A stretch of DNA of 64,000 bases from Candidatus Aldehydirespiratoraceae bacterium (GTDB lineage Bacteria; Actinomycetota; Acidimicrobiia; Acidimicrobiales; Aldehydirespiratoraceae). A model generated the notes under the pieces. The model was not told where the DNA came from. It searched no databases and saw only the letters and a list, made by a program, of their open reading frames with translations. The position numbers and the translations under genes are program-made. The stretch covers positions 18,473 through 82,472 of the forward strand of contig CBDEVU010000018.1 of the NCBI GenBank assembly GCA_965243715.1, written 5' to 3'. Of the stretch, positions 1 through 62,976 are shown piece after piece; the first letter of the stretch is position 1; each line of letters opens with the position of its first letter.

Positions 1-2
1 GT

Positions 3-353
3 CTCACCACCGGGCGGGCCTTAGACTCCTACAACACGGGTGTGCAGTCCGGTGGCTACGATAATCCGATCCGCTACGGAGATGCCCTAGAAATCAACCC
101 GACTGACGCCCGCGACCGTGACATCACCGACGGTGAACGGGTACTGGTTTCGTCGCCTCGTGGTTCGGTCGAGATGGAGGTCCGGGTTCAGCCCGATATT
201 CCCGTTGGCCTGGCGTTCACCACCTTTCACTTTCCCGATCTGGTCGATATAAACACGATCACCAACGACGAATGGGACCCCGATTCCGGAACGGCGGAGT
301 TCAAGGCAGCGGCGATCCGTATAGACAAGCTTTCGCTAGCCGCCCATGGCTGA
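3..353 (+). CDS. Molybdopterin oxidoreductase / formate dehydrogenase alpha-type catalytic subunit, C-terminal end (5'-partial, continues upstream of the window)
   Basis: The frame is open from the window edge (LTTGRALDSYNTGVQSGGYD...). EINPTDARDRDITDGERVLVSSPRGSVEMEVRV...FHFPD...EFKAAAIRI looks like the MopB C-terminal dinucleotide-binding barrel of FdhA/FdsA-type enzymes. Confidence 0.7.
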   Translation, partial: LTTGRALDSYNTGVQSGGYDNPIRYGDALEINPTDARDRDITDGERVLVSSPRGSVEMEVRVQPDIPVGLAFTTFHFPDLVDINTITNDEWDPDSGTAEFKAAAIRIDKLSLAAHG

Positions 354-2964: not shown

Positions 2965-3011
2965 CCGCCGTTAGCTCAACCCCCGTTAGCTCAACCCGCC
3001 GTTAGCTCAAC
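2965..3011. repeat. Intergenic tandem repeat, 3 units of about 16 bp (CCGCCGTTAGCTCAAC / CCCCGTTAGCTCAAC / CCGCCGTTAGCTCAAC)
   Basis: Read directly from the sequence between the convergent stops of 2094..2963 (+) and 3007..3957 (-). The last unit contains the minus-strand stop codon. Confidence 0.9.
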
Positions 3012-4355: not shown

Positions 4356-5953
4356 ACGATTGCCTGTTCTACGTACCTGCCGAAAACGATTTCCATGGCC
4401 CAGGCGATCTCTTCCTCTGTGGCGTAGGCCCGAGTGGCGTCGATGATCGACGGCATTAGGTTCACGGTGGGATCCCGGGCATCGGCGGTGACCTGGCGGA
4501 GCGTGCGATGCACGGCGTCGGTGTCGCGATCTTGTTTGGCTGCCGCTAGGCGCTTGCGTTGGTACTCCTCGGTCGAAGGGTCGACCCGCAACAGGTTGGT
4601 CTCGTCGTCGTTGTTACCTTCGGTGAAGTCGTTCACACCCACCACGATGCGCCGATCGGCGTTGACCTCGCGGGCGAAACGATAAGCGGCGTCGGCGATT
4701 TCACCAACGAAGTAGCCGTTTTCGATCCCCGCGTAGCAGCCTTCGAGAATCGATCCGTCGCCGAGTTCGTCGAGGTGGGCAAAGACCTCTTCGGCTTGGC
4801 GTTCCATCTCATCGGTCATCCATTCGACGTAGGGCGCGCCGCCGAGAGGGTCGACGACGTTCGCCGCGCCGGTTTCGTGAGCCACGATTTGTTGGGTTCG
4901 TAACGCAATCCGGGCCGCTTTCTCGCTGGGCAGGGCGAGGGCTTCGTCGAAGCTGTCGGTGTGCAGACTCTGAGTCCCGCCGAGCGCCGCAGCTAAGGCC
5001 TGAAGCGCCACCCGAGCAATATTGTTCTCTGGCTGCTGGGCGGTGAGCGACACTCCGGCGGTCTGGGTATGGAAGCGACACATCATGGCCCGTTCGTCGG
5101 TGGCACCGTAGCGTTCCTTCATCCAGCGGGCCCAGATACGGCGGGCGGCCCGGAACTTGCCGATCTCTTCAAAGAAGTCGCTGTGGGAGTTGAAAAAGAA
5201 GCTGAGCCGTCGGCCGAATTCGTTAATGTCTTGGCCTTCGGCGAGGGCCGCTTCGACGTAGGCGAAGCCGTTGGCCAGCGTAAAAGCGAGTTCGTGAGCG
5301 GCGGTGGAACCGGCCTCGCGAATGTGATAGCCGGAGATCGAGATGGGGTGCCATCTTGGCAACTCGGCGGTGGTGAACTTCACCATGTCGGTGACTATCC
5401 GCATCGACGGGCGGGGCGGGTAGATGTACTCCTTTTGCGCCTGGTACTCCTTCAGAATGTCGTTTTGGATCGTGCCAGCTAGGTGGCGCCGAGCGACACC
5501 TGTCTTCTCGGCGACGGTCACGTACATGGCGAGAAGGGTTGCGGCAGGACCGTTGATAGTCATCGAGGTGGAGACACGGGCGAGATCAATGTCGGCGAAG
5601 AGGTCTTCCATGTCGGCCAGGGTGTCGACGGCCACGCCTGCCCGCCCGACCTCGCCGAGGGCCCACATACTGTCGGAGTCGCGGCCCATGAGCGTCGGCA
5701 TGTCGAACGCCGTCGAAAGCCCGGTGCTGCCGTGGCGGAGCAGTTCTTTGAACCGGGTGTTGGTGTCCTCCGCGGTTCCGAAGCCAGCAAACATTCGCAT
5801 GGTCCAAAGCCGGGACCGGTAACCGGTGGGGTGAAGGCCGCGGGTGAACGGATACTCACCGGGCCACGGAGCGTCCCCATAGACCGCCTCGACCGGTATG
5901 CCGGACATTGTTTGAGCAGGCACGGTTTGGGCAGGCACGGTTTGGGCAGGCAC
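4352..5953 (-). CDS. icmA: Acyl-CoA mutase large (substrate-binding TIM-barrel) subunit, isobutyryl-CoA-mutase-like specificity residues
   Basis: Collinear by eye with MutB (WTMRMFAGFGTAEDTN, GLSTAFDMPT, TIQNDILKEY, ISISGYHIREAG, HTQTAG). Phe at the MutB Tyr89 position and Gln at the Arg207 position. Start is ambiguous: GTG at 5953 lies inside a repeat, and ATG at 5908 (MSGIPVEAVYG) is equally possible. Confidence 0.75.
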   Translation of the reverse strand: MPAQTVPAQTVPAQTMSGIPVEAVYGDAPWPGEYPFTRGLHPTGYRSRLWTMRMFAGFGTAEDTNTRFKELLRHGSTGLSTAFDMPTLMGRDSDSMWALGEVGRAGVAVDTLADMEDLFADIDLARVSTSMTINGPAATLLAMYVTVAEKTGVARRHLAGTIQNDILKEYQAQKEYIYPPRPSMRIVTDMVKFTTAELPRWHPISISGYHIREAGSTAAHELAFTLANGFAYVEAALAEGQDINEFGRRLSFFFNSHSDFFEEIGKFRAARRIWARWMKERYGATDERAMMCRFHTQTAGVSLTAQQPENNIARVALQALAAALGGTQSLHTDSFDEALALPSEKAARIALRTQQIVAHETGAANVVDPLGGAPYVEWMTDEMERQAEEVFAHLDELGDGSILEGCYAGIENGYFVGEIADAAYRFAREVNADRRIVVGVNDFTEGNNDDETNLLRVDPSTEEYQRKRLAAAKQDRDTDAVHRTLRQVTADARDPTVNLMPSIIDATRAYATEEEIAWAMEIVFGRYVEQAIV

Positions 5954-5993
5954 GGTTTGGGCACGGTTTGGGCAGGCACGGTTTGGGCAGGCG
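5916..5993. repeat. 15-bp tandem repeat (plus strand GCAGGCACGGTTTGG) of about 5.5 units, including one 11-bp truncated unit at 5961..5971
   Basis: Read directly. On the minus strand it encodes (PAQTV)n at or upstream of the mutase start. Confidence 0.9.
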
Positions 5994-6066: not shown

Positions 6067-6516
6067 ATGACACTCGACTTCGATCCGATTGACGAAGCGA
6101 CTTCGAATTGGCGCGCCGCGCACTGGCCCGCCGTCGAGGCCATGGCGGTCGCCACCTCGATCACCCGGGCTCAGCAAATCCTCGTCGCCCACATTGACGA
6201 AGCGCTCGCCCCGTTGGGTCTGAACCTCAGCCGGTTCGAAGTCCTAGCTCTGTTGTCTTTCACCCAAGAGGGTCACCTCCCGATGGGTAAGATCGGTGTT
6301 CGCCTCCAGGTTCATCCGGCCAGTGTGACTAATACGGTCGATCGGTTGCAATCGGACGGACTTGTGGTTCGTGTCCCTCATCCGTTTGACGGCCGAGCGA
6401 CTCTGGCCGAGATTACCGCCACTGGTCGCCACTACGCTAACGAGGGAGCGCACCTGTTAGGGGCGATCGAGTTTGGAGTCGGGGGTATGGAGTGGGCCAG
6501 CGGGCGGGCGTCGTGA
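6067..6516 (+). CDS. MarR-family transcriptional regulator
   Basis: 149 aa. Winged-helix pattern LSRFEVLALL...MGKIGVRLQVHPASVTNTVDRLQSDGLVVR...DGRATLAEIT. Confidence 0.8.
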   Translation: MTLDFDPIDEATSNWRAAHWPAVEAMAVATSITRAQQILVAHIDEALAPLGLNLSRFEVLALLSFTQEGHLPMGKIGVRLQVHPASVTNTVDRLQSDGLVVRVPHPFDGRATLAEITATGRHYANEGAHLLGAIEFGVGGMEWASGRAS

Positions 6517-7717: not shown

Positions 7718-7828
7718 GCCGCACCGATCAGTAGCTCCGAGGGCACCGCCTTGCCCGCGCCCGGCGAGTGTGGCATGCTAGGGCGCAGTCTTATTCCCCC
7801 CCCGGCCACGACCAGCGAAGGACCCCTG

Positions 7829-17023: not shown

Positions 17024-17923
17024 ATGGGAGTTGCGACCACCGACCCAGCGGTACGGCTTGATGTTCAATCGCTGCGCGTCTTTTGCGAACTCGTTGCATC
17101 TGATGGGTTCACCGCCGCCGCCACCCGTCTCGGCGTCACCCAATCGGCGGTCAGTCACAAGATCAAGCGGCTAGAAGAACGCATAGGGGTGGACCTGATT
17201 CGGCGCGACGGCCAATCGTTCGCGGTAACCGCCGACGGTCTCGATCTCCTTGTCCATGCTAAACAGATCGTGAGGGCGCATGACTTGGCCGTGGATTCGC
17301 TTCATCGGTCGCCGCTCGTCGGCACGCTGTGCCTCGGGTGCAACGAGGAAGTCGCGGCGACCCAACTCGCTGAGGTCGCCAGTCGGTTCCGTCGTACTCA
17401 CCCCAACGTCACCTTGGAGATCAAGGTCCACGACTCGGCGTGCGTTGCGGACTGGCTGGAATCCGGCGAGGTCGACCTCGCCCTCCTTCAGGTTCTCGAT
17501 GTCGATGGTGCGGTGCGGTCGAACGATGAAGTGTGGCGGCGTGACGAACTCGTGGTCAGGCAAGGCATGGTGGCTGATTTCGATGAAGCGGAACCCGTCC
17601 CGTTGATTTCGTTTGGTCCGCGGTGTTTGTATGAGCCGTGGCTCGTGAGTGCGCTAGCCGCCGTTGGTCGTTCGTTTCGGACCGTTCTGGAGTGCCCAAG
17701 CATTCAAGGGGTTCAGGCGGCGGTTGAGGCCGGACTGGGGGTGGCGGTCCTAAACACGCCCAACCTCACCAGAGCGATGAGGCCTTGGACCGGTCTGGAG
17801 GCGGTCGAACTCCCGCCGGTGGCGTTCGTACTCCGAGTCGCCCCAAGCAGTGGCCCGCGTCCGCTCGCCGAAGCGCTACGACACCATCTTTCGGTCGCGC
17901 TCGAGAAAAGGAATCCGCCGTGA
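17024..17923 (+). CDS. LysR-family transcriptional regulator
   Basis: N-terminal HTH (LRVFCELVASDGFTAAATRLGVTQSAVSHKIKRLEERIG) plus an LTTR substrate-binding domain. Confidence 0.9.
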   Translation: MGVATTDPAVRLDVQSLRVFCELVASDGFTAAATRLGVTQSAVSHKIKRLEERIGVDLIRRDGQSFAVTADGLDLLVHAKQIVRAHDLAVDSLHRSPLVGTLCLGCNEEVAATQLAEVASRFRRTHPNVTLEIKVHDSACVADWLESGEVDLALLQVLDVDGAVRSNDEVWRRDELVVRQGMVADFDEAEPVPLISFGPRCLYEPWLVSALAAVGRSFRTVLECPSIQGVQAAVEAGLGVAVLNTPNLTRAMRPWTGLEAVELPPVAFVLRVAPSSGPRPLAEALRHHLSVALEKRNPP

Positions 17924-19478
17924 GTACTCCCGCGTCCACCGCCGCGCCTAGGGCCCGCCGAGGGCGGGGTGCTCGCCGGCAAGCCCGTACTGCGTACACC
18001 CAACGCTTTTTGCCCGAACTCGAGAGAGGTTTGCCGTACCTCGACGCCCTACTGCCGGAGCAGGTACAACTCGTCCACGACCACACGATGAGGTTGCTGG
18101 AGACAACGGGAATCGACTTCCGCGACGACGAAGCCATTGAAATGTGGAGCCAAGCTGGTTCTGGCGGGGGAGTGGCTATAGACGGCTACCGCGTCCGCAT
18201 CGACCGCGAACTTCTCATGGGACTCATAGCCACCGTGCCGAGCGAATACACGATGGTTGCCCGAGATTCGGCCCGTACAGTCTCTGTCGGTGGCCGCAAG
18301 AGCATTTTCACTCCTGCCTACGGCGCGCCGTTCGTGCTCGACTTGGAGGGCAGGCGTCGGAACGCGACGCTCGAGGACTTCGACAATTTCGCCAAGATTG
18401 CCCACATGACTCCTGCCATGCAGATGAGCGGAGGTGTGCTGTGCGAGCCGATGGACATTGCGGTCGCCCACCGCCACCTTCGCATGACGTACAGCCTCAT
18501 CAAGCACTCTTCCAAGCCCTTCATGGGCTCTGTCACCTCTCGGGAACGAGCTCAAGACAGCCTCGATATGACCAAGATCGTGTTCGGCGAGGACTTTCTC
18601 GAGGAGAACACGGTCATGACCTGCTTGGCCAACGGTAACTCGCCGCTCGTGTGGGATTCCACGATGCTCGATGCGGTGAAGGTCTACGGGGCAGCTAACC
18701 AGGCCATGCTGTTTTCGCCCTTCGTGCTGGGTGGAGCCTCGACCCCCGCGTCGACGATTGGCTCGGTGGTGCAGATTAACGCCGAAGCGCTGGCCGGCGT
18801 GGCTTTTAGCCAACTAGTGCGGCCCGGAGTTCCCGCCGTGTACGGCCAGTGGCTGGCGACTGTTTCGATGAAAACCGGCGCGCCTATGGCGGGCACCCCA
18901 GAGATCGACCATATGAACCTTCTCGTTGGACAACTGGCCCGTCACTACGAACTCCCCTGGCGTTGTTCGGGATGTGCTCATCGTCGAAGCAGGTGGACGC
19001 ACAGGCGGGCTATGAGGCCGCCCGCAATATGTACGGTGCGGTCCTCGCGGGGGCAAACTTTGTTCTCTCCACCACCGGCTACCTCGAATCGGCGCTGTGT
19101 CAGAGCTATGCCAAAGCAGCCCTCGACGGCGAGCAAGCGGAAATGTTTCGCACGTTTGCCGAGGGCATTAGGTTTGATGAACTCGATGCCGCGCTCGACG
19201 CGATGAACGATGTCGAACCCGGGGGCCACTTCCTTGGCACCGCGCACACGCTGGCCAATTTCGAACGAGCTTTTTCGATGCCTGAGTTGATGGACTGCAA
19301 CGGGTTCGATCAGTGGACGGCGACCGGTGCGCAGGACGCCAACGCCCGTGGGGCTAAGAAGTGCCAGCAACTCCTCGCTGATTACGAAGAACCAACCTTG
19401 CCCGACGACATCGACGAGGCGCTACGTGATTTCGTCGCCCGGCGAATCACCGAGATCCCTGAGACTGGCAATGACTAG
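17920..19478 (+). pseudogene. MttB-superfamily (non-Pyl) quaternary-amine:corrinoid methyltransferase, copy 1, with its reading frame broken by an apparent 1-nt deletion near 18969..18971
   Basis: Two ORFs (17785..19206 and 18849..19478) are collinear with intact paralogs 33198..34760 and 58429..59976. Joining them gives LPWRCSG|MCSSSKQVDAQAGYE versus paralog LPFRSGGQFTASKYPDAQAAYE. GTG start overlaps the lysR stop (GTGA). Confidence 0.75.
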
Positions 19479-19502
19479 CACCCCGCCTCTGCTAAGCGGA
19501 AC

Positions 19503-20471
19503 GTGTGTGTGGCGCTGTCCTCGCCCTTTGACGATAGCGGCGAAACGCTTGACGAGGGTCGCTTGGGAGACCACATCGAGAGCATGATCGACGCTGGGGT
19601 CCACGCTTTGGTGCTGTGTGCGGGTACCGGTGAGTTTGCTTTTCTCTCGGAGCCAGAGAAGCGACGCATCATTGGACTGGGTTGTGAGATTGTCGCTGGC
19701 CGCATCCCCGTTGTCGCCCAAACCTCGGCCATCACCACGCGAGACGCCATCGAACGCACCCGCGAAGCCGCTGACCTCGGCGCCGCGGCCGCCATGGTGT
19801 TGCCCCCCTACTTCGAAGGTCCACTTGAGAGGGGTGTGCTCTACCACTACGAGAAACTGGCCAAAGCGACCGACATCCCAATCGTGCTCTACAATATACC
19901 GGCCAGTAGCGGATTTGACATTCACCCCGACCTTTACCGGCGGCTCATAGCGCTGGAAAACATCGAGTACATCAAAGATTCGACCGGCGACCTCGTCCGC
20001 CTACAGAAGTTGATCGCCATTGGCGGACACGTGCTCGCGGGCACTGATCCGTTGGCTCCTTACGCGGCGATGGCGGGCGCCGCGGGGTGGATCTGGGGGG
20101 CGGCGAACGTGATGCCCCACGAATGTGTGCAGCTGTGGAATCTCATACAGGCGGGCGAACATGGGGCGGCGCTGGAGCTGTGGGCCAAAATGCGGCCCGC
20201 CAATATGTTCTTTTGGGAGAACAACGTGGAGGCGGAATACAACTCGGCGGTCAAGACGGCAACCAACATGGTTGGCCGTCGCGTTGGCCCGTGCCGTCGT
20301 CCGGTGATGCCAATGACCCGTCAGGGCCGAGTGGCGCTCCAGACAGCCCTTTCCCCGCTGCCGATCAACGGAGTCGCTCGCGACACATTGGTGTTTCGTG
20401 AGTGGGATGACGAACGCGATTGGCTGGTTCAGATGACTCATCAAGCGGGCGTGAGCCGAGCGAAAGGCTGA
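19503..20471 (+). CDS. DHDPS/N-acetylneuraminate-lyase-family Schiff-base enzyme (possible pyrroline-4-hydroxy-2-carboxylate deaminase-like)
   Basis: GTGEFAFLSEPEKRRII, YNIP, and the active-site Lys context IEYIKDSTGD. Confidence 0.75.
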   Translation: MCVALSSPFDDSGETLDEGRLGDHIESMIDAGVHALVLCAGTGEFAFLSEPEKRRIIGLGCEIVAGRIPVVAQTSAITTRDAIERTREAADLGAAAAMVLPPYFEGPLERGVLYHYEKLAKATDIPIVLYNIPASSGFDIHPDLYRRLIALENIEYIKDSTGDLVRLQKLIAIGGHVLAGTDPLAPYAAMAGAAGWIWGAANVMPHECVQLWNLIQAGEHGAALELWAKMRPANMFFWENNVEAEYNSAVKTATNMVGRRVGPCRRPVMPMTRQGRVALQTALSPLPINGVARDTLVFREWDDERDWLVQMTHQAGVSRAKG

Positions 20472-24874: not shown

Positions 24875-25561
24875 ATGAGACAATTCCTTTCCTCTAACCT
24901 CAAGTGGTTGCTCCCCGCGGGAGCGGTGGCGGTTGTTGTGGTGGCCTATCTCGCCTTCTCCGTCTTTGCCGTTCATACCTTCTTCATCGACAAGGAGGTC
25001 GCCGAAGCAATGCCCGTGTTCGCGTCTGGCGCCTCGGAAACCGACGTCGAAGTCGAGGCAATGAGTGAAGCCGAGGCAATGAGTGAAGTCGAGGTGATGA
25101 GTGAAGTCGAGGAGACTGAAGAAGCCAGTGCTGATGAAGCCAGTGCTGAAGAAGCCAGTGGTATAGGAACGGTTCCCGAGGAGCCTGTGGCCGATAATGC
25201 CCCAGCGGAAGCCACCACGGTAACCGTGGAGTATGCCGGCGATTTTGTCGACCGTAGCCACCCATCGGCGGGTGTGGCGTCGGTTCTCGGCGACGGTTCC
25301 GGTCAGCGCTTCGTTCGCTTCGAGAACTTCGAAACCGACAATGGCCCTGATCTCAACGTCTATCTTTCGACCGCTCCGCCGGACGCGCCAGCGGGAGATT
25401 TCGATGATGACTTCATCGACCTTGGCGACCTCAAAGGAAACGTGGGCCCACAAAACTACGAGATCCCCGAAGGTACCGATCTCGAGCGCTACTCAACGGT
25501 CGTGATCTGGTGCGTACGGTTCGGGGTGGCGTTCGGTACCGCCGGTTTGGTGGCCAGCTAG
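24875..25561 (+). CDS. Membrane-anchored DM13-domain protein with an acidic repeat linker
   Basis: N-terminal TM helix and (EAMSEx)n/(EASAx)n repeats. The C-terminal part (GDFVD...RFVRFENFETDNGPDLNVYLS...DLGDLKGNVGPQNYEIP...VVIWCVRFGVAFG) resembles DM13. Confidence 0.65.
   Translation: MRQFLSSNLKWLLPAGAVAVVVVAYLAFSVFAVHTFFIDKEVAEAMPVFASGASETDVEVEAMSEAEAMSEVEVMSEVEETEEASADEASAEEASGIGTVPEEPVADNAPAEATTVTVEYAGDFVDRSHPSAGVASVLGDGSGQRFVRFENFETDNGPDLNVYLSTAPPDAPAGDFDDDFIDLGDLKGNVGPQNYEIPEGTDLERYSTVVIWCVRFGVAFGTAGLVAS
25055..25165. repeat. In-frame tandem repeats: 3 x 18 bp (GAGGCAATGAGTGAAGCC-like), then 3 x 15 bp (GAAGCCAGTGCTGAT-like)
   Basis: Read directly. Lies in the linker of the DM13 protein. 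Confidence 0.9.
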
Positions 25562-32421: not shown

Positions 32422-33201
32422 ATGTCCCACGTGCAAGCCGTCGATCGAGCGCTGCTCCTACTTAGCGAAATAGGCCGAGAGTCTGGCGGATTGGTCGACC
32501 TCGCGAGCCGTGTCGATTTGGCCACGAGCACAGCGGCTCGGCTGTTGAATACCCTGGAGTCGGCAGGTGCCGTTCGCCGCAGCGACGACGCGAGCTACGA
32601 GATCGGTCCGCTGATCCAGTCCCTGACCGCCGCGCCCGAAGGTAGCCAGCGCCTAGAGCAACTAGTTCATCCCCACCTCGTCGAACTATCTACTCAACTT
32701 GATGAAGCGGCGTGCCTTGCTTTGATCTCTGGTGACGAAACCGTCACCGTCGATCAGGTTGACGCCCCCAAGCCGGTCCAGGCCGAGAACTGGACGGGAA
32801 CCCGCGTCCCCCTTCACGCTGGGGGAGCGGGTCTGGTCGCCATGGCAACCTGGGACGACGTGGAGGTCGAGCGCTACCTAAGCGGCGAACTCGTGGCGTG
32901 CTCTGCCCTCACTGTCACCGACCCGGCAAAGCACCGGTGCCGCCTCGAGGAGATCCGTCGCACCGGCGTGTGTTGGACGCACGGCGAATACGTCGAAGGT
33001 CTATCCTCGCTGTCGGCGGCCATCCAAGATGTGTCGGGTCGAGCGGTGGCCGTGCTCTACACCTACGGGCCGAGCTATCGCTATCCCGCGCCCGGGTCGG
33101 CCGAAAAGGTGGCTCGCACCGTCTGGGCCCGTGCTGAACGCATCTCCATCCAACTGGGCTGGACGGGTTCGCTTACACCAGTGCGAAACGAGGCTTCGTG
33201 A
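32422..33201 (+). CDS. IclR-family transcriptional regulator
   Basis: N-terminal wHTH (VQAVDRALLLLSEIG...LVDLASRVDLATSTAARLLNTLESAGAVRR) plus an IclR effector domain. Confidence 0.85.
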   Translation: MSHVQAVDRALLLLSEIGRESGGLVDLASRVDLATSTAARLLNTLESAGAVRRSDDASYEIGPLIQSLTAAPEGSQRLEQLVHPHLVELSTQLDEAACLALISGDETVTVDQVDAPKPVQAENWTGTRVPLHAGGAGLVAMATWDDVEVERYLSGELVACSALTVTDPAKHRCRLEEIRRTGVCWTHGEYVEGLSSLSAAIQDVSGRAVAVLYTYGPSYRYPAPGSAEKVARTVWARAERISIQLGWTGSLTPVRNEAS

Positions 33202-34760
33202 CCGAGGTTCGCTCTTCTACCGGCACGGGAACCAAGCGGAAACGTGGTGGGGGTCGTCGCCAACGTCCTGCGGCGCCGGTTGGCCCGCCGCAACGGCCCT
33301 GGCAACTCTACCGCCGCCCGATTGAGGCCACCAAGGTTGTGTCAGAGGATGAACTCGAGAACATTCATCAGACTTCGCTCATCGTGCTGCGCGACATTGG
33401 CCTGGATTTTTTGCATCCCACGGCGCGCAAGATGTGGGCTGAGGCGGGGGCTAAGGTTGACGACGAGCGGGTTCGATTCGATCCCGCCCTCATCGAAGAC
33501 CTCGTTGCTTCGGCGCCGAGCGAGTTCGTGATGTACGGGCCGGATCCTGCCTACGACATTCACGTCGGCGGCGACAGCGTGGTGTTCACCGCCGTGGCCA
33601 GCGCCCCGAACTATGCCGATCGGGCGGGGGGTCGTCGTACTGGTAGTCAGGAGAGCTTTCGCACACTGGTGAAGTTGTGTCATCAACTTCACATCATCCA
33701 GAGCTTGCCTGGTTACCCGGTTGAGCCGATTGATCTCCACCCGTCGATCCGTCACCTTGAAGCTACCCGCGACATGCTGACCCTCACCGGCAAGGCCGTA
33801 CACGCCTACTCCCTGGGGAAGCAGCGCAACCTGGACTGTCTCGAAATGGTGCGGATTCGGCGCGGCCTTAGCGAGGACGAAATCGATACCCATCCCATTG
33901 TGCATTCGGTCGTTAACGTCAGTTCACCGTTGCGACTCGACGGTCCAATGATCGAGGGAATACTGCAGTTTTCGGCTCGTAACCAGCCCATTATTGTCAC
34001 GCCGTTCACCCTGGCGGGAGCAATGGCCCCAGTCACGATTGTAGGAGCCGTCGTACAGCAAAACGCCGAAGCCCTCGCCGGACTTGCCTTTTGCCAACTG
34101 GTTCGCCGCGGCTCGCCGGTGGTGTATGGCGGATTCACTTCCAACGTCGACATGCGCAGCGGGGCGCCCGCGTTTGGGACTCCTGAGTTCATGCAGTCGG
34201 CGATGCTCGGCGGCCAGCTAGCGCGGCGCTATAACTTGCCGTATCGCAGTTCTAACGTGTGTACTGCCAACACCATCGATGCCCAAGCGGGCTACGAGAG
34301 TGTGTTTTCGCTCTGGGGCGCGATCATGGGCGGGGCCAACATAGTTCTCCATGGTGCGGGCTGGATGGAAGGCGGACTGCAGGCCAGTCCGGAAAAGATG
34401 GTGATTGACGCCGACCTGCTCCAGATGGTGGCGACCTTCTTGCAACCGCTCATCGTCGACGACGCAACTATGGCGGTCGAAGCAATCGTCGACGTCGGCC
34501 CCGGCGGGCACTTCTTTGGCACCCAGCACACCCAGGATCGTTACCGAGACGCCTTCTACCGTCCCATGATCTCTGACTGGCGAAATTATGAAAGCTGGGA
34601 AGAAGCGGGTAGTCCAACGGCTTACGACCACGCCGAACGGGTCGCCCGAGACCTGCTCTCCACCTACGAACCACCACCCATAGACACCGCGGTGCGGGCC
34701 GAACTTGACGATTTCGTCGAGCGGCGAATCGCCGAGGGCGGTGTCGACACCGACTTTTAG
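33198..34760 (+). CDS. MttB-superfamily (non-Pyl) methyltransferase, copy 2 (intact)
   Basis: 520 aa, collinear with copies 1 and 3. No in-frame TAG. GTG start overlaps the iclR stop (GTGA). Confidence 0.85.
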   Translation: MTEVRSSTGTGTKRKRGGGRRQRPAAPVGPPQRPWQLYRRPIEATKVVSEDELENIHQTSLIVLRDIGLDFLHPTARKMWAEAGAKVDDERVRFDPALIEDLVASAPSEFVMYGPDPAYDIHVGGDSVVFTAVASAPNYADRAGGRRTGSQESFRTLVKLCHQLHIIQSLPGYPVEPIDLHPSIRHLEATRDMLTLTGKAVHAYSLGKQRNLDCLEMVRIRRGLSEDEIDTHPIVHSVVNVSSPLRLDGPMIEGILQFSARNQPIIVTPFTLAGAMAPVTIVGAVVQQNAEALAGLAFCQLVRRGSPVVYGGFTSNVDMRSGAPAFGTPEFMQSAMLGGQLARRYNLPYRSSNVCTANTIDAQAGYESVFSLWGAIMGGANIVLHGAGWMEGGLQASPEKMVIDADLLQMVATFLQPLIVDDATMAVEAIVDVGPGGHFFGTQHTQDRYRDAFYRPMISDWRNYESWEEAGSPTAYDHAERVARDLLSTYEPPPIDTAVRAELDDFVERRIAEGGVDTDF

Positions 34761-58428: not shown

Positions 58429-59976
58429 TTAGTAGGCTGCGTCAGGCATTTCCGACTTGCGCCGTGCGATGTAGTCTTGAAGTTCGGCGTCGATTGCCTC
58501 GTCCAAGCCCGGACCTTGGTATTCGGCGAGCATCCGCTTCCATGTCCGGTTGGCTCGCTGGGCCGCGGTGAGTCCGCCATCTTCGGTCCACTGTTCGAAG
58601 CTGTTGTTGTCGGCTTCGGTCGACCGGTAGAAGGCGGTTTCGAAGTTGGCCAGGGTGTGATTGTTGCCGAGGAAGTGCTCACCGTGGGGATTGCTGCGGA
58701 AGGCGTCCATGGCCTGGCCGTTCTCGGACATGTCGATACCGCGGGCGTAGACGCCCATCATGCCGAGTTGGTCGGCGTCGAGGATGAGTTTTTCGTAACC
58801 TAGGGCCAAGCCGCCCTCTTGCCAGCCAGCGGCGTGCAACACAAAGTTCACCCCCGCGTTTATGGCGGGCAGAATCGTGGAGGCTGATTCGTAGGCCGCT
58901 TGGGCATCGGGGTACTTCGACGCAGTGAACTGGCCGCCGGAACGAAAGGGCAGGCCCACCCGGCGTGCCAGCGAAGCCATGACGTTGATGGCCTGGCCCG
59001 CCTCGGGTGTGCCGAAGGTCGGTGCGCCGGTGGCCATCGACATAGACGAGGCAAAGGTGCCGAAGATAACCGGTGCGCCGGGTCTAACCAGTTGCACGTA
59101 GGCCATTCCCGACAACGCCTCGGCGAGGGCTTGAGCGGCGAGCCCAGCAACGGTGACCGGCGACATGGCCCCCGCGAGGATGAACGGCGACATGATGCAC
59201 GCTTGGTTGGCCCGGGCGTATTGCGTAGCGGCGCCGAGCATCGTGGCGTCCCAGCGCAACGGCGAGGAGGCATTGATGAGCGAGGTCATCACGGTGCGAT
59301 CCTCAAGGTCGCCGCCAAAGCCGATGCGGGCCAACTCGATAGAGTCCGCGGCTCGGTCCGCCGCAGTCACCGAACCCATGAACGGCTTGTCGCTGTACTT
59401 GAGGTGGGAGTACACCATGTCGAGATGGCGCTTGTTGACCGGCACATCGACGGGTTCACATACTGTGCCGCCGCTGTGGTGAAGGTGAGGCAGGTCGTAT
59501 ACGAGTTTCACAATGTTTTGGAAGTCCTCGATGGTGCCGTAGCGGCGACCGTTGTCGAGATCCATCACGAACGGGGAACCGTAGTTCGGGGCAAATACCG
59601 TGCAGTTCTCGCCGATTTTCACGCTTCGTTCGGGGTTGCGGGCGTGCTGAAGGTAGAACCTCGGCGCGTTCTGCTGAATGATTTCGCGGCACATTCCTTT
59701 GGGGAACTTGACGAGGTCACCGGTTACGGCCGCCCCCGCGGTGCGCCACAGGTCAAGGGCCTCGGGGAACTCCTGAAAGGCGATCCCGATCTCGGCCAGG
59801 ATGGTTTCGGCGTTCTCCTCGATCTGGCTGAGGGCGTCGTCGTCGAGCATGTTGACTGGGGGAATCTTGCGCTCTAGGTAGGCAACGGTGGCCGCGGTTG
59901 ATGAGGCCCGAGCGGCTTGTCGCCCCGCTCGCCCTCCCCCTCGACGGCCGCCGGAACGGGCTGCGGTTTCGCTCAT
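58429..59976 (-). CDS. MttB-superfamily (non-Pyl) methyltransferase, copy 3 (intact)
   Basis: 515 aa, collinear with copy 2. No in-frame TAG. ATGA overlap with the upstream activase gene. Confidence 0.85.
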   Translation of the reverse strand: MSETAARSGGRRGGGRAGRQAARASSTAATVAYLERKIPPVNMLDDDALSQIEENAETILAEIGIAFQEFPEALDLWRTAGAAVTGDLVKFPKGMCREIIQQNAPRFYLQHARNPERSVKIGENCTVFAPNYGSPFVMDLDNGRRYGTIEDFQNIVKLVYDLPHLHHSGGTVCEPVDVPVNKRHLDMVYSHLKYSDKPFMGSVTAADRAADSIELARIGFGGDLEDRTVMTSLINASSPLRWDATMLGAATQYARANQACIMSPFILAGAMSPVTVAGLAAQALAEALSGMAYVQLVRPGAPVIFGTFASSMSMATGAPTFGTPEAGQAINVMASLARRVGLPFRSGGQFTASKYPDAQAAYESASTILPAINAGVNFVLHAAGWQEGGLALGYEKLILDADQLGMMGVYARGIDMSENGQAMDAFRSNPHGEHFLGNNHTLANFETAFYRSTEADNNSFEQWTEDGGLTAAQRANRTWKRMLAEYQGPGLDEAIDAELQDYIARRKSEMPDAAY

Positions 59977-62048
59977 GATGGTTCCTCGGTTTCTTTCGGT
60001 CGTCGGCGGCGCCGGCCTCGACCGGCACCGTCTTGAGCTTCAGTGCGTTCGGGTAAGTCAACTATGGCCCGCAGGTGCGGACTAGGGGCGGTGGCGTGCG
60101 GGAAGGCCATCGCGGCGACAAATAAGTCCTGGAAGCGAGGCTCTGTGGCGGTCTCGATCTTTTCGATCTGCCGCACGGCCGCGGCGATCTCGTGGCGTTG
60201 CTGGGCCGAGACCAAGAGGCGCACTGCCCCCGCACCCGAGGAGTTGCCAACTGCCCGAACGCTCTCGACTGGGCAGTCGGGTACGAGTCCGAGAACGAGG
60301 GCGTAGATCGGATCGATGTGAGTACCGAAAGCGCCAGCGAGACGAACGTCGTGGACTTCGGCAATGCCAGCGTGTTCCATCAACAAGTCGATGCCCGCCC
60401 GCAGCGCCGAACCGGCTAACTGGATCTGTCGTATATCGTTTTGGGTGATGGCCAGTTGCGGCTCTTCGGTGCCGTCGTTGTTTTGGCCCGCGGCGCGGAT
60501 CACATAAGTAAACGTTCGTCCATCGGCCACGACGCGCGGCGAGCGCTCGGCTAGCGAACCCTGAATTACGCCTTTGTGGTCACATATACCGGCGAGGTAG
60601 ATCTCGCCCACGATCTCGATGATGGCTGAGCCACAGAGGCCCGCGATGTCGAGTTTGGCGGTCTGGCGGGCGAATTCTGGTTCATCGGACCAAGCGTCGG
60701 CCCCGATCACCCTGAAGCGCGGCTCGAGCGTGGTGCGGTCGATACGGATGCGCTCAATGGCCCCGGCTGTGGCGCGCATGCCACAAGATATTTGCGCCCC
60801 TTCGAACGCCGGGCCGGTGGGAGAAGACGCGGCGTAGGTGCGTTGGGCGGTACCGAGGACGATTTCGGCGTTGGTTCCAACATCGACTAGAAGTTGAGGT
60901 TCGGTCGTGCGGTGAGTGCCTTCGTTGAGGGTGGCCGCCGCGGCATCGGCTCCGACATGCCCCGCGATGCACGGGGCAATGTGGGCTCGGGCGTTAGGTA
61001 ACGCCAGGCCGAGTTCGTCGGCTCGCATGTCGACGGGTTCGCCGATCGTTAGCGTGAACGGCGCGGCGCCCAGCGGGGTCGGATTAATGCCCAAAAAGAG
61101 GTGATGCATCACCGGATTACCGACCAACACGACATCGTGAATGCGGGACCGAAGGTCAGAGGGGGCAAGATCAGAGGCGAGTCCGGTGGCGAGGTCTTCG
61201 ATCAAGTCGTCAAGTGCTTGGCGGATTACCGCGGTGAGTTCGTCCTCCCCCCCGGGATTCATCATGACGTAGCTGACCCGGCTCATAAGATCCTCGCCGA
61301 AGCGGATTTGTGGATTCATGGCGCCGCTGGTGGATACGACCTCGCCGGTGGCTAGATCGACGAGGTATCCGGCGAGAGTGGTGGAGCCAACGTCGATGGC
61401 CGCGCCGTAGATTGCTTCGTCGAACCCGGCCCGTACCGCCATCACCGTGCCATCCGCGTGGACAATCGCGGTGATGGCTCGTGAGCCGTGGACGATGGCC
61501 GGATGCAGGTCGGGGAGCACGCGGGCATCGACGGTGGCTCCTTCGATGCCCCAGTCTTGGCGAAGGGCTTCTCGGAGCAGTTCAGCGTCGGATCGCTCGT
61601 CGCCCAATTCGACTTCGGGCAACTCGATGTAGCGGGCTGCGATAAGGGGGTCGAGGGTGAGCCCGGCTAGGTCGATCTTCTTGCGTACAACGGGACGATG
61701 GACTTGCGAGGCGGCGGGAATATCGACGACAACATCGGCATAGACCGTTGCCTGACAGCCGAGACGGTTCCCTTCTTCGATCGTGCGGCGACCCTTGTAG
61801 TTCGTCTCGACCGATGTCCACGCGGACACCGCGTCGCGGGTCGAGGTGATGTTCCATTTGGCGAATTCGCCCTGCGTGGGGCTGACCTGGCAGCGGCCGC
61901 AAAGACCGCGACCGCCACAGGTCGAGTCGATGTCGACCCCAATCCTGCGTGCCACGTCAAGCACGGTGGTTCCGGGCGCGACGGTGGTCTGGACCCCGGA
62001 CGGGGTGAAGACGATCGTAACGTCGTCGGCTCGGATGGGTGGGAGCAT
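59973..62048 (-). CDS. Corrinoid reductive activase (RamA/RACE-like): N-terminal plant-type 2Fe-2S ferredoxin plus an ASKHA (DUF4445) ATPase body
   Basis: CGGRGLCGRCQV...LGCQ ferredoxin motif. The long ASKHA-like region has DVGSTT / DVGTNAE phosphate-binding-type motifs. 691 aa. Confidence 0.75.
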   Translation of the reverse strand: MLPPIRADDVTIVFTPSGVQTTVAPGTTVLDVARRIGVDIDSTCGGRGLCGRCQVSPTQGEFAKWNITSTRDAVSAWTSVETNYKGRRTIEEGNRLGCQATVYADVVVDIPAASQVHRPVVRKKIDLAGLTLDPLIAARYIELPEVELGDERSDAELLREALRQDWGIEGATVDARVLPDLHPAIVHGSRAITAIVHADGTVMAVRAGFDEAIYGAAIDVGSTTLAGYLVDLATGEVVSTSGAMNPQIRFGEDLMSRVSYVMMNPGGEDELTAVIRQALDDLIEDLATGLASDLAPSDLRSRIHDVVLVGNPVMHHLFLGINPTPLGAAPFTLTIGEPVDMRADELGLALPNARAHIAPCIAGHVGADAAAATLNEGTHRTTEPQLLVDVGTNAEIVLGTAQRTYAASSPTGPAFEGAQISCGMRATAGAIERIRIDRTTLEPRFRVIGADAWSDEPEFARQTAKLDIAGLCGSAIIEIVGEIYLAGICDHKGVIQGSLAERSPRVVADGRTFTYVIRAAGQNNDGTEEPQLAITQNDIRQIQLAGSALRAGIDLLMEHAGIAEVHDVRLAGAFGTHIDPIYALVLGLVPDCPVESVRAVGNSSGAGAVRLLVSAQQRHEIAAAVRQIEKIETATEPRFQDLFVAAMAFPHATAPSPHLRAIVDLPERTEAQDGAGRGRRRRRPKETEEPS

Positions 62049-62072
62049 TAGCTGACGTTAGGCTGTGTGGCG

Positions 62073-62976
62073 CTAGGTTGGCCGGCGACGGCCGCCGCGA
62101 CGACGGGCTCCACCCGCGCCGCCTCCGGCGTTGGGATCGCGGTTCTCGCGAATCCAAGAAGCGCAGTTGTTGTCGCTTCCGGTGAGAACGTCGGCCGCCA
62201 TGATCGCAGTCTTTACCTCGGGGTGCATCGGGTTCATGATCGCTGAGGTCATGCCCGCACCCATCGCCATGGCGAGGAACGTTCCCGTGACGTGCGTGGC
62301 GGTTAGGAAGGCCAAAGCTGACGTTCGACGCCCCGCAGGTAGTGTTGACGCCGAGTTCCTCGCGCAGGCGGCGAACGAGAGAGAACACTTGTTGGCCCGC
62401 AGTGCCAATCGCGCCGATGGGCATCACGAGCGGATCGACGACAATGTCGTGGGCTGGGATCCCGAAGTCGGCCGCGGTGTGGACGATCTTTTTGGCCACC
62501 GCGAAGCGAACGTCTGGGTCTTCTGAAATACCGGTTTCGTCGTTGGATATGGCCACGACAGCCGCACCGGCTCGAGCAACCAGCGGGAGGACCCGTTCGA
62601 GGACCTCTAGTTCGCCGGTCACCGAGTTAATAAGCGGCTTGCCGTCGTAGGCCTCGATACCGGCTTCGAGCGCCTCGATGATTGAGGAGTCGATGGCCAG
62701 CGGCACATCGGTAATCGACTGCACGAGTTTGATGGCCTGGGCGAGTAGCGCCGGTTCGTCGGCTAGCGGGATGCCGGCGTTCACGTCGAGCATCTGCGCG
62801 CCCGCCGCAACCTGGGCTAGGGCATCGGCCTCCACGCGGCTGAAGTCGCCGTTCTTCATCTCTTCGGCCAAGAGTTTGCGGCCGGTTGGGTTGATGCGCT
62901 CGCCAATCATGACGAACGGACGGCCAAAGCCGATCACGACCTCTTTGGTCGCCGAACTAATAACGGTCTCGGTCAC
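62073..62976 (-). pseudogene. Pterin-binding methyl-corrinoid:tetrahydrofolate methyltransferase (MeTr/MtgA/MetH-domain-like), with its frame broken by an apparent 1-nt insertion near 62288..62296
   Basis: Frame A (61957..62976) reads IGERINPTGRK...LDVNAG...AIDSS...INSV...CGASNVSFGLPNRH and then becomes nonsense. Frame B (62073..62408) resumes VTGTFLAMAMGAGMTSAIMNP. Deleting one base restores GLPNRHAVTGTFL with the family-typical spacing. Confidence 0.7.

Follow-up and report, generated by a model that had tools for sequence, protein, structure and literature searches.

The pyrrolysine-containing MttB of Methanosarcina (PDB 7XCL; TIGR02369) is recognized by an in-frame UAG at Pyl334, within the loop LPSYVAGS-Pyl-SDAK. 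MtgB of Desulfitobacterium hafniense (PDB 2QNE/9YCE) has a sense codon at this position; its substrate is bound by Y97, R312, H348 and F356, with R312 binding the carboxylate (PMC13080624). The Sinorhizobium-type homologue 4YYC falls in the non-Pyl class of quaternary-amine:corrinoid methyltransferases of the MttB superfamily. Three mttB paralogues are present in the stretch of 64,000 nucleotides that was analysed here as a whole (the window), together with a Rieske oxygenase, a dimethylglycine-dehydrogenase-like gene, GCV_T proteins and an OpuAC-type ABC transporter; the window is a methylated-amine catabolic island. The first paralogue, copy 1, is broken in its reading frame at a run of three G. 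Its parts, its upstream neighbour and the other two paralogues are the following:

17024..17923, + strand: LysR-family regulator directly upstream of copy 1, its stop overlapping the mttB start (Pfam HTH_1 and LysR_substrate on the syntenic gene of haplotype L001)
17920..18969, + strand: 5' segment of mttB-family copy 1, from M1 (GTG) to S350, in the original frame (translation; Pfam MTTB match; overlap of the GTG with the LysR stop; start of the public gene call P0122)
18969..18971, + strand: GGG run, one G short of GGGG, the break lying within the Ser350-Gly351 codons TCG GG(G) (haplotype comparison)
18972..19478, + strand: 3' segment of copy 1, from M352 to D519 and the TAG, read in the -1 frame, which remains open and conserved (translation; haplotype identity; SNPs)
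18975..18977, + strand: TGC encoding Cys353, aligned with pyrrolysine-334 of MttB (gapless alignment to 7xcl; codon checked)
19204..19206, + strand: TGA ending the out-of-frame reading (translation; P0122)
33198..34760, + strand: mttB-family copy 2, intact, 520 aa, with Cys at the Pyl-equivalent position (translation; Pfam MTTB)
58429..59976, - strand: mttB-family copy 3, intact, 515 aa, with Phe at the Pyl-equivalent position (translation; Pfam MTTB)

An earlier note on this DNA had described copy 1 as split by a -1 frame break at GGG 18969..18971, and both open reading frames were reproduced by translation. The first, 17785..19206, reads ...LARHYELPWRCSG and then runs into an Arg/Ser/Pro-rich tail up to the TGA at 19204-19206; the second, 18849..19478, lies one base behind and reads ...GMCSSSKQVDAQAGYEAARNMY... 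until the TAG at 19476-19478. The G run has the context TCGGGATG. Upstream of the break copy 1 reads ...LARHYELPWRCS, and past it homologous reading resumes in the -1 frame as GMCSSSKQVDAQAGYE... As written, the gene encodes 428 aa, the last 77 residues of which are nonsense, and the public gene call for the window, P0122, is the same 428-aa product with its start at 17920. The biological start is this GTG at 17920, overlapping the TGA of the upstream LysR gene, and not the mechanical TTG at 17785.

Insertion of one G at the run yields LPWRCSGMCSSSK and a protein of 519 aa. The note's claim that one added G restores the gene was borne out, since the repaired protein spans the whole Pfam MTTB profile (PF06253; 626 bits against a cut-off of 25; positions 2-500 of 500 in a single stretch; E = 3e-188) and GGGG is found in three near-identical haplotypes. 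Its score against the TIGR02369 model of Pyl-type MttB is 277 bits, below the equivalog cut-off of 525 bits, and its closest structures (phmmer against the PDB) are 4YYC (E = 2e-139) and MtgB (E = 2e-112). Copy 1 is of the same fold family as the Methanosarcina enzyme, but differs from it in carrying TGC (Cys353) in place of the UAG at Pyl334, in its TIGR02369 score and in having no PYLIS_3 match. As judged from its sequence, copy 1 is a non-pyrrolysine MttB-superfamily methyltransferase, like 4YYC.

The break lies in the active-site loop. In the phmmer alignment to 7xcl, the segment LPSYVAGSXSDAK, in which X is chain position 334, pairs with LPWRCSGMCSSSK without gaps, and Pyl-334 stands opposite Cys353 (TGC 18975-18977), two codons after the break; the distance of about two codons given in the note was thereby confirmed. 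Its assignment of the Pyl-equivalent residue also stood in the alignment: Cys in copies 1 and 2 (LPYRSSNVCTANT in the latter) and Phe in copy 3 (LPFRSGGQFTASK). On the other side of the break, R310, H346 and F354 of the 9yce chain correspond to the published R312, H348 and F356 of MtgB with a constant offset of 2, and the carboxylate-binding R312 aligns with R348 of copy 1, three residues ahead of the break. R348 and Cys353 thus flank the break, which places it in the conserved loop, as had been proposed. The intact gene contains 15 homopolymer runs of at least four nucleotides, and the broken G4 run is one of them; that the break is so close to the Pyl position is best explained as a coincidence of where this run lies, without mechanistic meaning.

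Apart from the retained arginine and the sense codon at the Pyl position, which it shares with MtgB, copy 1 differs from this enzyme at two of the substrate-binding residues: H348 is replaced by Ser and F356 by Ala in the alignment to 9yce. Because this His and Phe are not kept, the substrate of copy 1 is probably not glycine betaine and would probably be another quaternary amine. Of note, the RCSGMC loop (window 18961..18977) contains two cysteines, the second being the Pyl-equivalent residue, and it is invariant in 19 of the 20 orthologous loci L004-L023, which extend from Acidimicrobiales as far as Mesorhizobium. Taken with the DHDPS-like, aldehyde dehydrogenase and DAO genes nearby, this loop is a hint that the MttB subgroup may act on a separate class of substrates that is so far uncharacterised.

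Copy 1 belongs to an apparent operon consisting of the LysR gene, mttB, a DHDPS-like gene, an aldehyde dehydrogenase, a DAO-type oxidase and two SDR genes. Inspection of this operon revealed no corrinoid protein, reductive activator or methyl-acceptor methyltransferase adjoining copy 1. The copy 3 operon comprises a corrinoid reductive activator (RACo), a pterin-binding methyltransferase, a DUF1638 gene and a B12-binding protein, and the only set of B12-binding protein, RACo and Pterin_bind genes in the region is this one, about 40 kb from copy 1. A corrinoid protein, RACo and a pterin methyltransferase, like those of other non-Pyl quaternary-amine:corrinoid methyltransferase systems, are present in the window, though beside copy 3, and copy 1 may or may not use them. 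Within copy 3, the Rfam model PYLIS_3 (pyrrolysine insertion sequence of mttB) matches 58830..58929 on the - strand with 39.9 bits, against a gathering score of 38. Its UAG aligns to a UUC Phe codon, which independently supports the placement of the Phe. This match is the only one to PYLIS_3 in the window, and it looks like homology between coding sequences, not a functional element or recoding signal.

A protein search with repaired copy 1 retrieved P0001, also of 519 aa, which differs by a single conservative I/L exchange and is encoded on a 2.8-Mb contig of the ENA metagenome assembly ERZ26693861. The cluster of P0001 contains two further intact versions, from other contigs of ERZ26693861, and the truncated P0122 of the window. 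The three ERZ26693861 haplotypes (L001, L002 and L003, on contigs at 638x, 372x and 340x) are syntenic with the window at 98.8-99.8% DNA identity and carry an intact gene of 515-519 aa. At the break site all three read GGCGTTGTTCGGGGATGTGCTC (GGGG), where the window has GGCGTTGTTCGGGATGTGCTC, and the 75 aa around the junction of repaired copy 1 are 100% identical in the three. Four SNPs separate copy 1 from L001; three are synonymous, including both of those downstream of the break when read in the -1 frame. These synonymous SNPs and the one-residue difference indicate that the 3' part of copy 1 shows no decay.

More distant relatives gave the same picture. A further 20 loci, drawn from GTDB species representatives, encode proteins 62-85% identical to repaired copy 1; they belong to Acidimicrobiales-type MAGs, to two Mesorhizobium genomes and to one gammaproteobacterial MAG. 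The best match, at 85%, is in a Candidatus Microthrix MAG, and the organism of the window would fall among the Acidimicrobiales-like actinobacteria. In all 20, (W/S)RCSG is read without a change of frame, and in 19 the sequence is LPWRCSGMC. The codons at the site vary synonymously (TCG GGC/GGA/GGT, or AGC GGT), and where the intact allele has G4, the other orthologues have G2-G3. The G4 run is hence a peculiarity of the window's species, and a slippery motif is not conserved. The comparison with orthologues that the note had suggested thus left all 23 related loci (three haplotypes and 20 GTDB loci) without the break. A scan of JGI metagenomes for either allele, with the pattern CGTTGTTCGGGN{0,1}ATGTGCTCATCG, gave no matches.

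The window as a whole differs from the 638x contig by 106 SNPs. The 88 that were classified, in window 7920-64000, comprise 65 synonymous, 18 non-synonymous and 5 intergenic changes, a ratio that indicates strong purifying selection and a low dN/dS. Against this background there are four private frame-disrupting small indels (6489, 18969, 19500-19501 and 62295), about one per 16 kb. Besides copy 1, they affect three genes:

6067..6516, + strand: MarR-family regulator, GGG to GG at 6489, 149 aa instead of 176 (intact in the four near-identical haplotypes L028-L031)
19471..20471, + strand: DHDPS-family gene with a private AA insertion at 19500-19501 (three haplotypes without the insertion; Pfam DHDPS)
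61957..62976, - strand: pterin-binding (MtgA-like) methyltransferase with a private +1 at 62295 and a SNP at 62291 (comparison with haplotype L026; PF00809)

The AA at 19500-19501 shifts the ATG at 19471 out of frame along with the gene's first 10 codons (MTSTPPLLSG), leaving the GTG at 19503 as the sole in-frame start; the Pfam DHDPS match begins at profile position 2 in L001 and at position 6 in the window. The pterin methyltransferase covers positions 1-211 of the 244 of PF00809 in the window and 1-243 in L026; in the window an Arg-rich tail, overlapping the RACo gene, takes the place of its last ~70 conserved residues. Among the remaining indels of the window, a difference of CC in the C run at 7796 is also seen between the sister haplotypes. 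The others change the length of repeats by 11-18 bp and lie in intergenic DNA, at the 5' end of a gene or, with the frame preserved, inside genes. At window 25054..25071, 52405, 2968..2991, 5949..5960 and 46933, the window and the sister haplotypes have unequal numbers of 11-18 bp tandem-repeat units, which looks like natural repeat-length polymorphism.

When the sister haplotypes were compared with each other, no gene-body frameshift was found in three independent pairs with 325 SNPs. The excess of frame-disrupting indels thus lies on the side of the window and is significant (Fisher p = 0.004; p = 0.016 with the single upstream CC length variant scored against the haplotypes). Copy 1 is an otherwise intact gene under purifying selection with a G4 tract one nucleotide short, and this shortfall is most likely a consensus error of the assembly, which we infer from the excess of indels. 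GGGG would have been under-called as GGG, a homopolymer consensus error, while the genome was sequenced or assembled, and the organism would then make an ordinary 519-aa protein by standard decoding. We favour this reading because the intact allele is present in near-identical strains, because no orthologue has the break, and because private frame-disrupting indels are in excess; spread over unrelated genes at a low dN/dS, this excess resembles consensus errors.

Two of the three single-base private indels (6489 and 18969) are contractions of a G run, as is typical of homopolymer errors. As in draft genomes and MAGs with homopolymer consensus errors, the contraction in copy 1 is a private, single-base one in a gene that is otherwise perfectly conserved, with a comparable event at 6489 in the same assembly. 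Unlike such errors, two of the four private indels (the AA after GCGG, and the base beside the SNP, at 62291-62295) are not homopolymer events. Other points against an error are the low frequency of such events, about one in 16 kb of an otherwise clean window, and the origin of all near-identical intact comparators in the single metagenome assembly ERZ26693861. Real frameshift polymorphisms at about 1 per 50-100 SNPs between bacterial strains are not unheard of.

We therefore considered, as a serious if less likely alternative, that replication slippage in the G4 tract has genuinely and very recently removed one G in this strain alone, inactivating copy 1. The 428-aa product would lack the part of the active-site loop that follows Gly351 and the entire C-terminal third, and the loss would be tolerated through the two remaining paralogues or because the pathway is dispensable in the strain. 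The base is indeed missing from the deposited sequence, the depositor's gene call is the truncated 428 aa, and G4 tracts are natural slippage targets; yet secondary decay is absent, since the downstream frame is open for 169 codons and the SNPs there are synonymous. Two of the other private lesions (19500-19501 and 62295) strike the same metabolic system, possibly reflecting relaxed selection, but the fourth private frameshift, in the unrelated MarR regulator, indicates that the lesions are not confined to one pathway and weakens the idea that they cluster there. Although the two indels that are not of the homopolymer type would fit real mutation, four disruptions within 0.17% divergence would be unusual, the more divergent sister haplotypes are free of any gene-body frameshift, and the regional dN/dS is low.

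A third possibility is that the GGG allele is real and that ribosomes shift by -1 at G_GGA, with tRNA-Gly re-pairing from GGA to GGG, so that the full-length enzyme is made. Such a single-tRNA slip is chemically possible and would yield exactly the conserved sequence, and the site is close to the position of the known recoding event of the MttB family. Yet the break is in none of the 23 related loci, the three closest of which are in frame with GGGG, and the varying TCG GGC/GGA/GGT or AGC GGT codons of the orthologues do not preserve a slippery motif. Copy 1 resembles genes with programmed -1 frameshifting (dnaX, IS elements) in that its downstream frame is the -1 of its upstream frame, but it differs from them in the conservation of the break and in its signals. 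There is no X_XXY_YYZ heptamer, the sequence being T_TCG_GGA, which allows only a single-codon slip at G_GGA (TTCGGGATG). The 90 nt downstream (18973-19062) fold at -31.9 kcal/mol, against a mean of -32.2 for shuffled sequences (z = 0.10), and neither a PYLIS-like nor another meaningful Rfam match was found around the break. Furthermore, the assembly has three more private frameshifts, which points to a generic cause. We consider recoding in copy 1 highly improbable, and programmed frameshifting, with break and motif unconserved and the downstream structure unremarkable, is effectively excluded by these comparisons. It is about equally improbable that a real GGG allele allows low-level -1 slippage of tRNA-Gly at a newly arisen, leaky G_GGA site, or, in a milder version, that the strain is in a real burst of gene inactivation with four frameshifts in 64 kb.

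Other explanations were rejected more briefly. A link of the break to pyrrolysine or PYLIS found no support, as neither PYLIS_3 nor another meaningful Rfam model matches around the break and the one PYLIS_3 match of the window lies in copy 3. A phase-variable homopolymer switch would usually have a tract of 7 or more, against G4 here and G2-G3 in orthologues. An established pseudogene does not fit a 3' frame open over 169 codons with two SNPs that are both synonymous, although the power of this argument is low at 0.2% divergence. The AA insertion at 19500-19501 does not compensate the -1, as it is a +2 insertion past the stop of the second frame, in the next gene.

The order given in the note, with homopolymer error ahead of inactivating mutation and recoding last, is hence supported by the GGGG haplotypes, the excess of indels and the occurrence of the break in 0 of 23 loci. 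A consensus error being the preferred reading, copy 1 should be annotated as one intact MttB-family gene of 519 aa; at most, it could be called a strain-specific pseudogene, and its annotation as two open reading frames or as a recoding candidate is unwarranted. About one spurious or private frameshift per 16 kb is to be expected in the source assembly, which affects analyses of gene content and pseudogenes in this genome.

Two further observations concern the surroundings. In L003, an AT-rich insertion of ~420 bp (4546..4963, corresponding to window 19463..19486) lies between mttB and the DHDPS-family gene; it encodes a hydrophobic ORF of 119 aa and replaces the last four mttB codons. Directly upstream of the window lies a formate-dehydrogenase-like molybdopterin subunit (L028 6329..8260), the 3' end of which is in window 1..353. 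It is called as two genes of 89 aa and 543 aa in the same frame, split by a TGA at L028 6596-6598 in all four haplotypes. Folding of the 70 nt downstream of this TGA is not unusually good (z = -0.3). The motif at the TGA is CNRT-TGA-HAPSVVG, and from its sequence this codon is a candidate selenocysteine codon.
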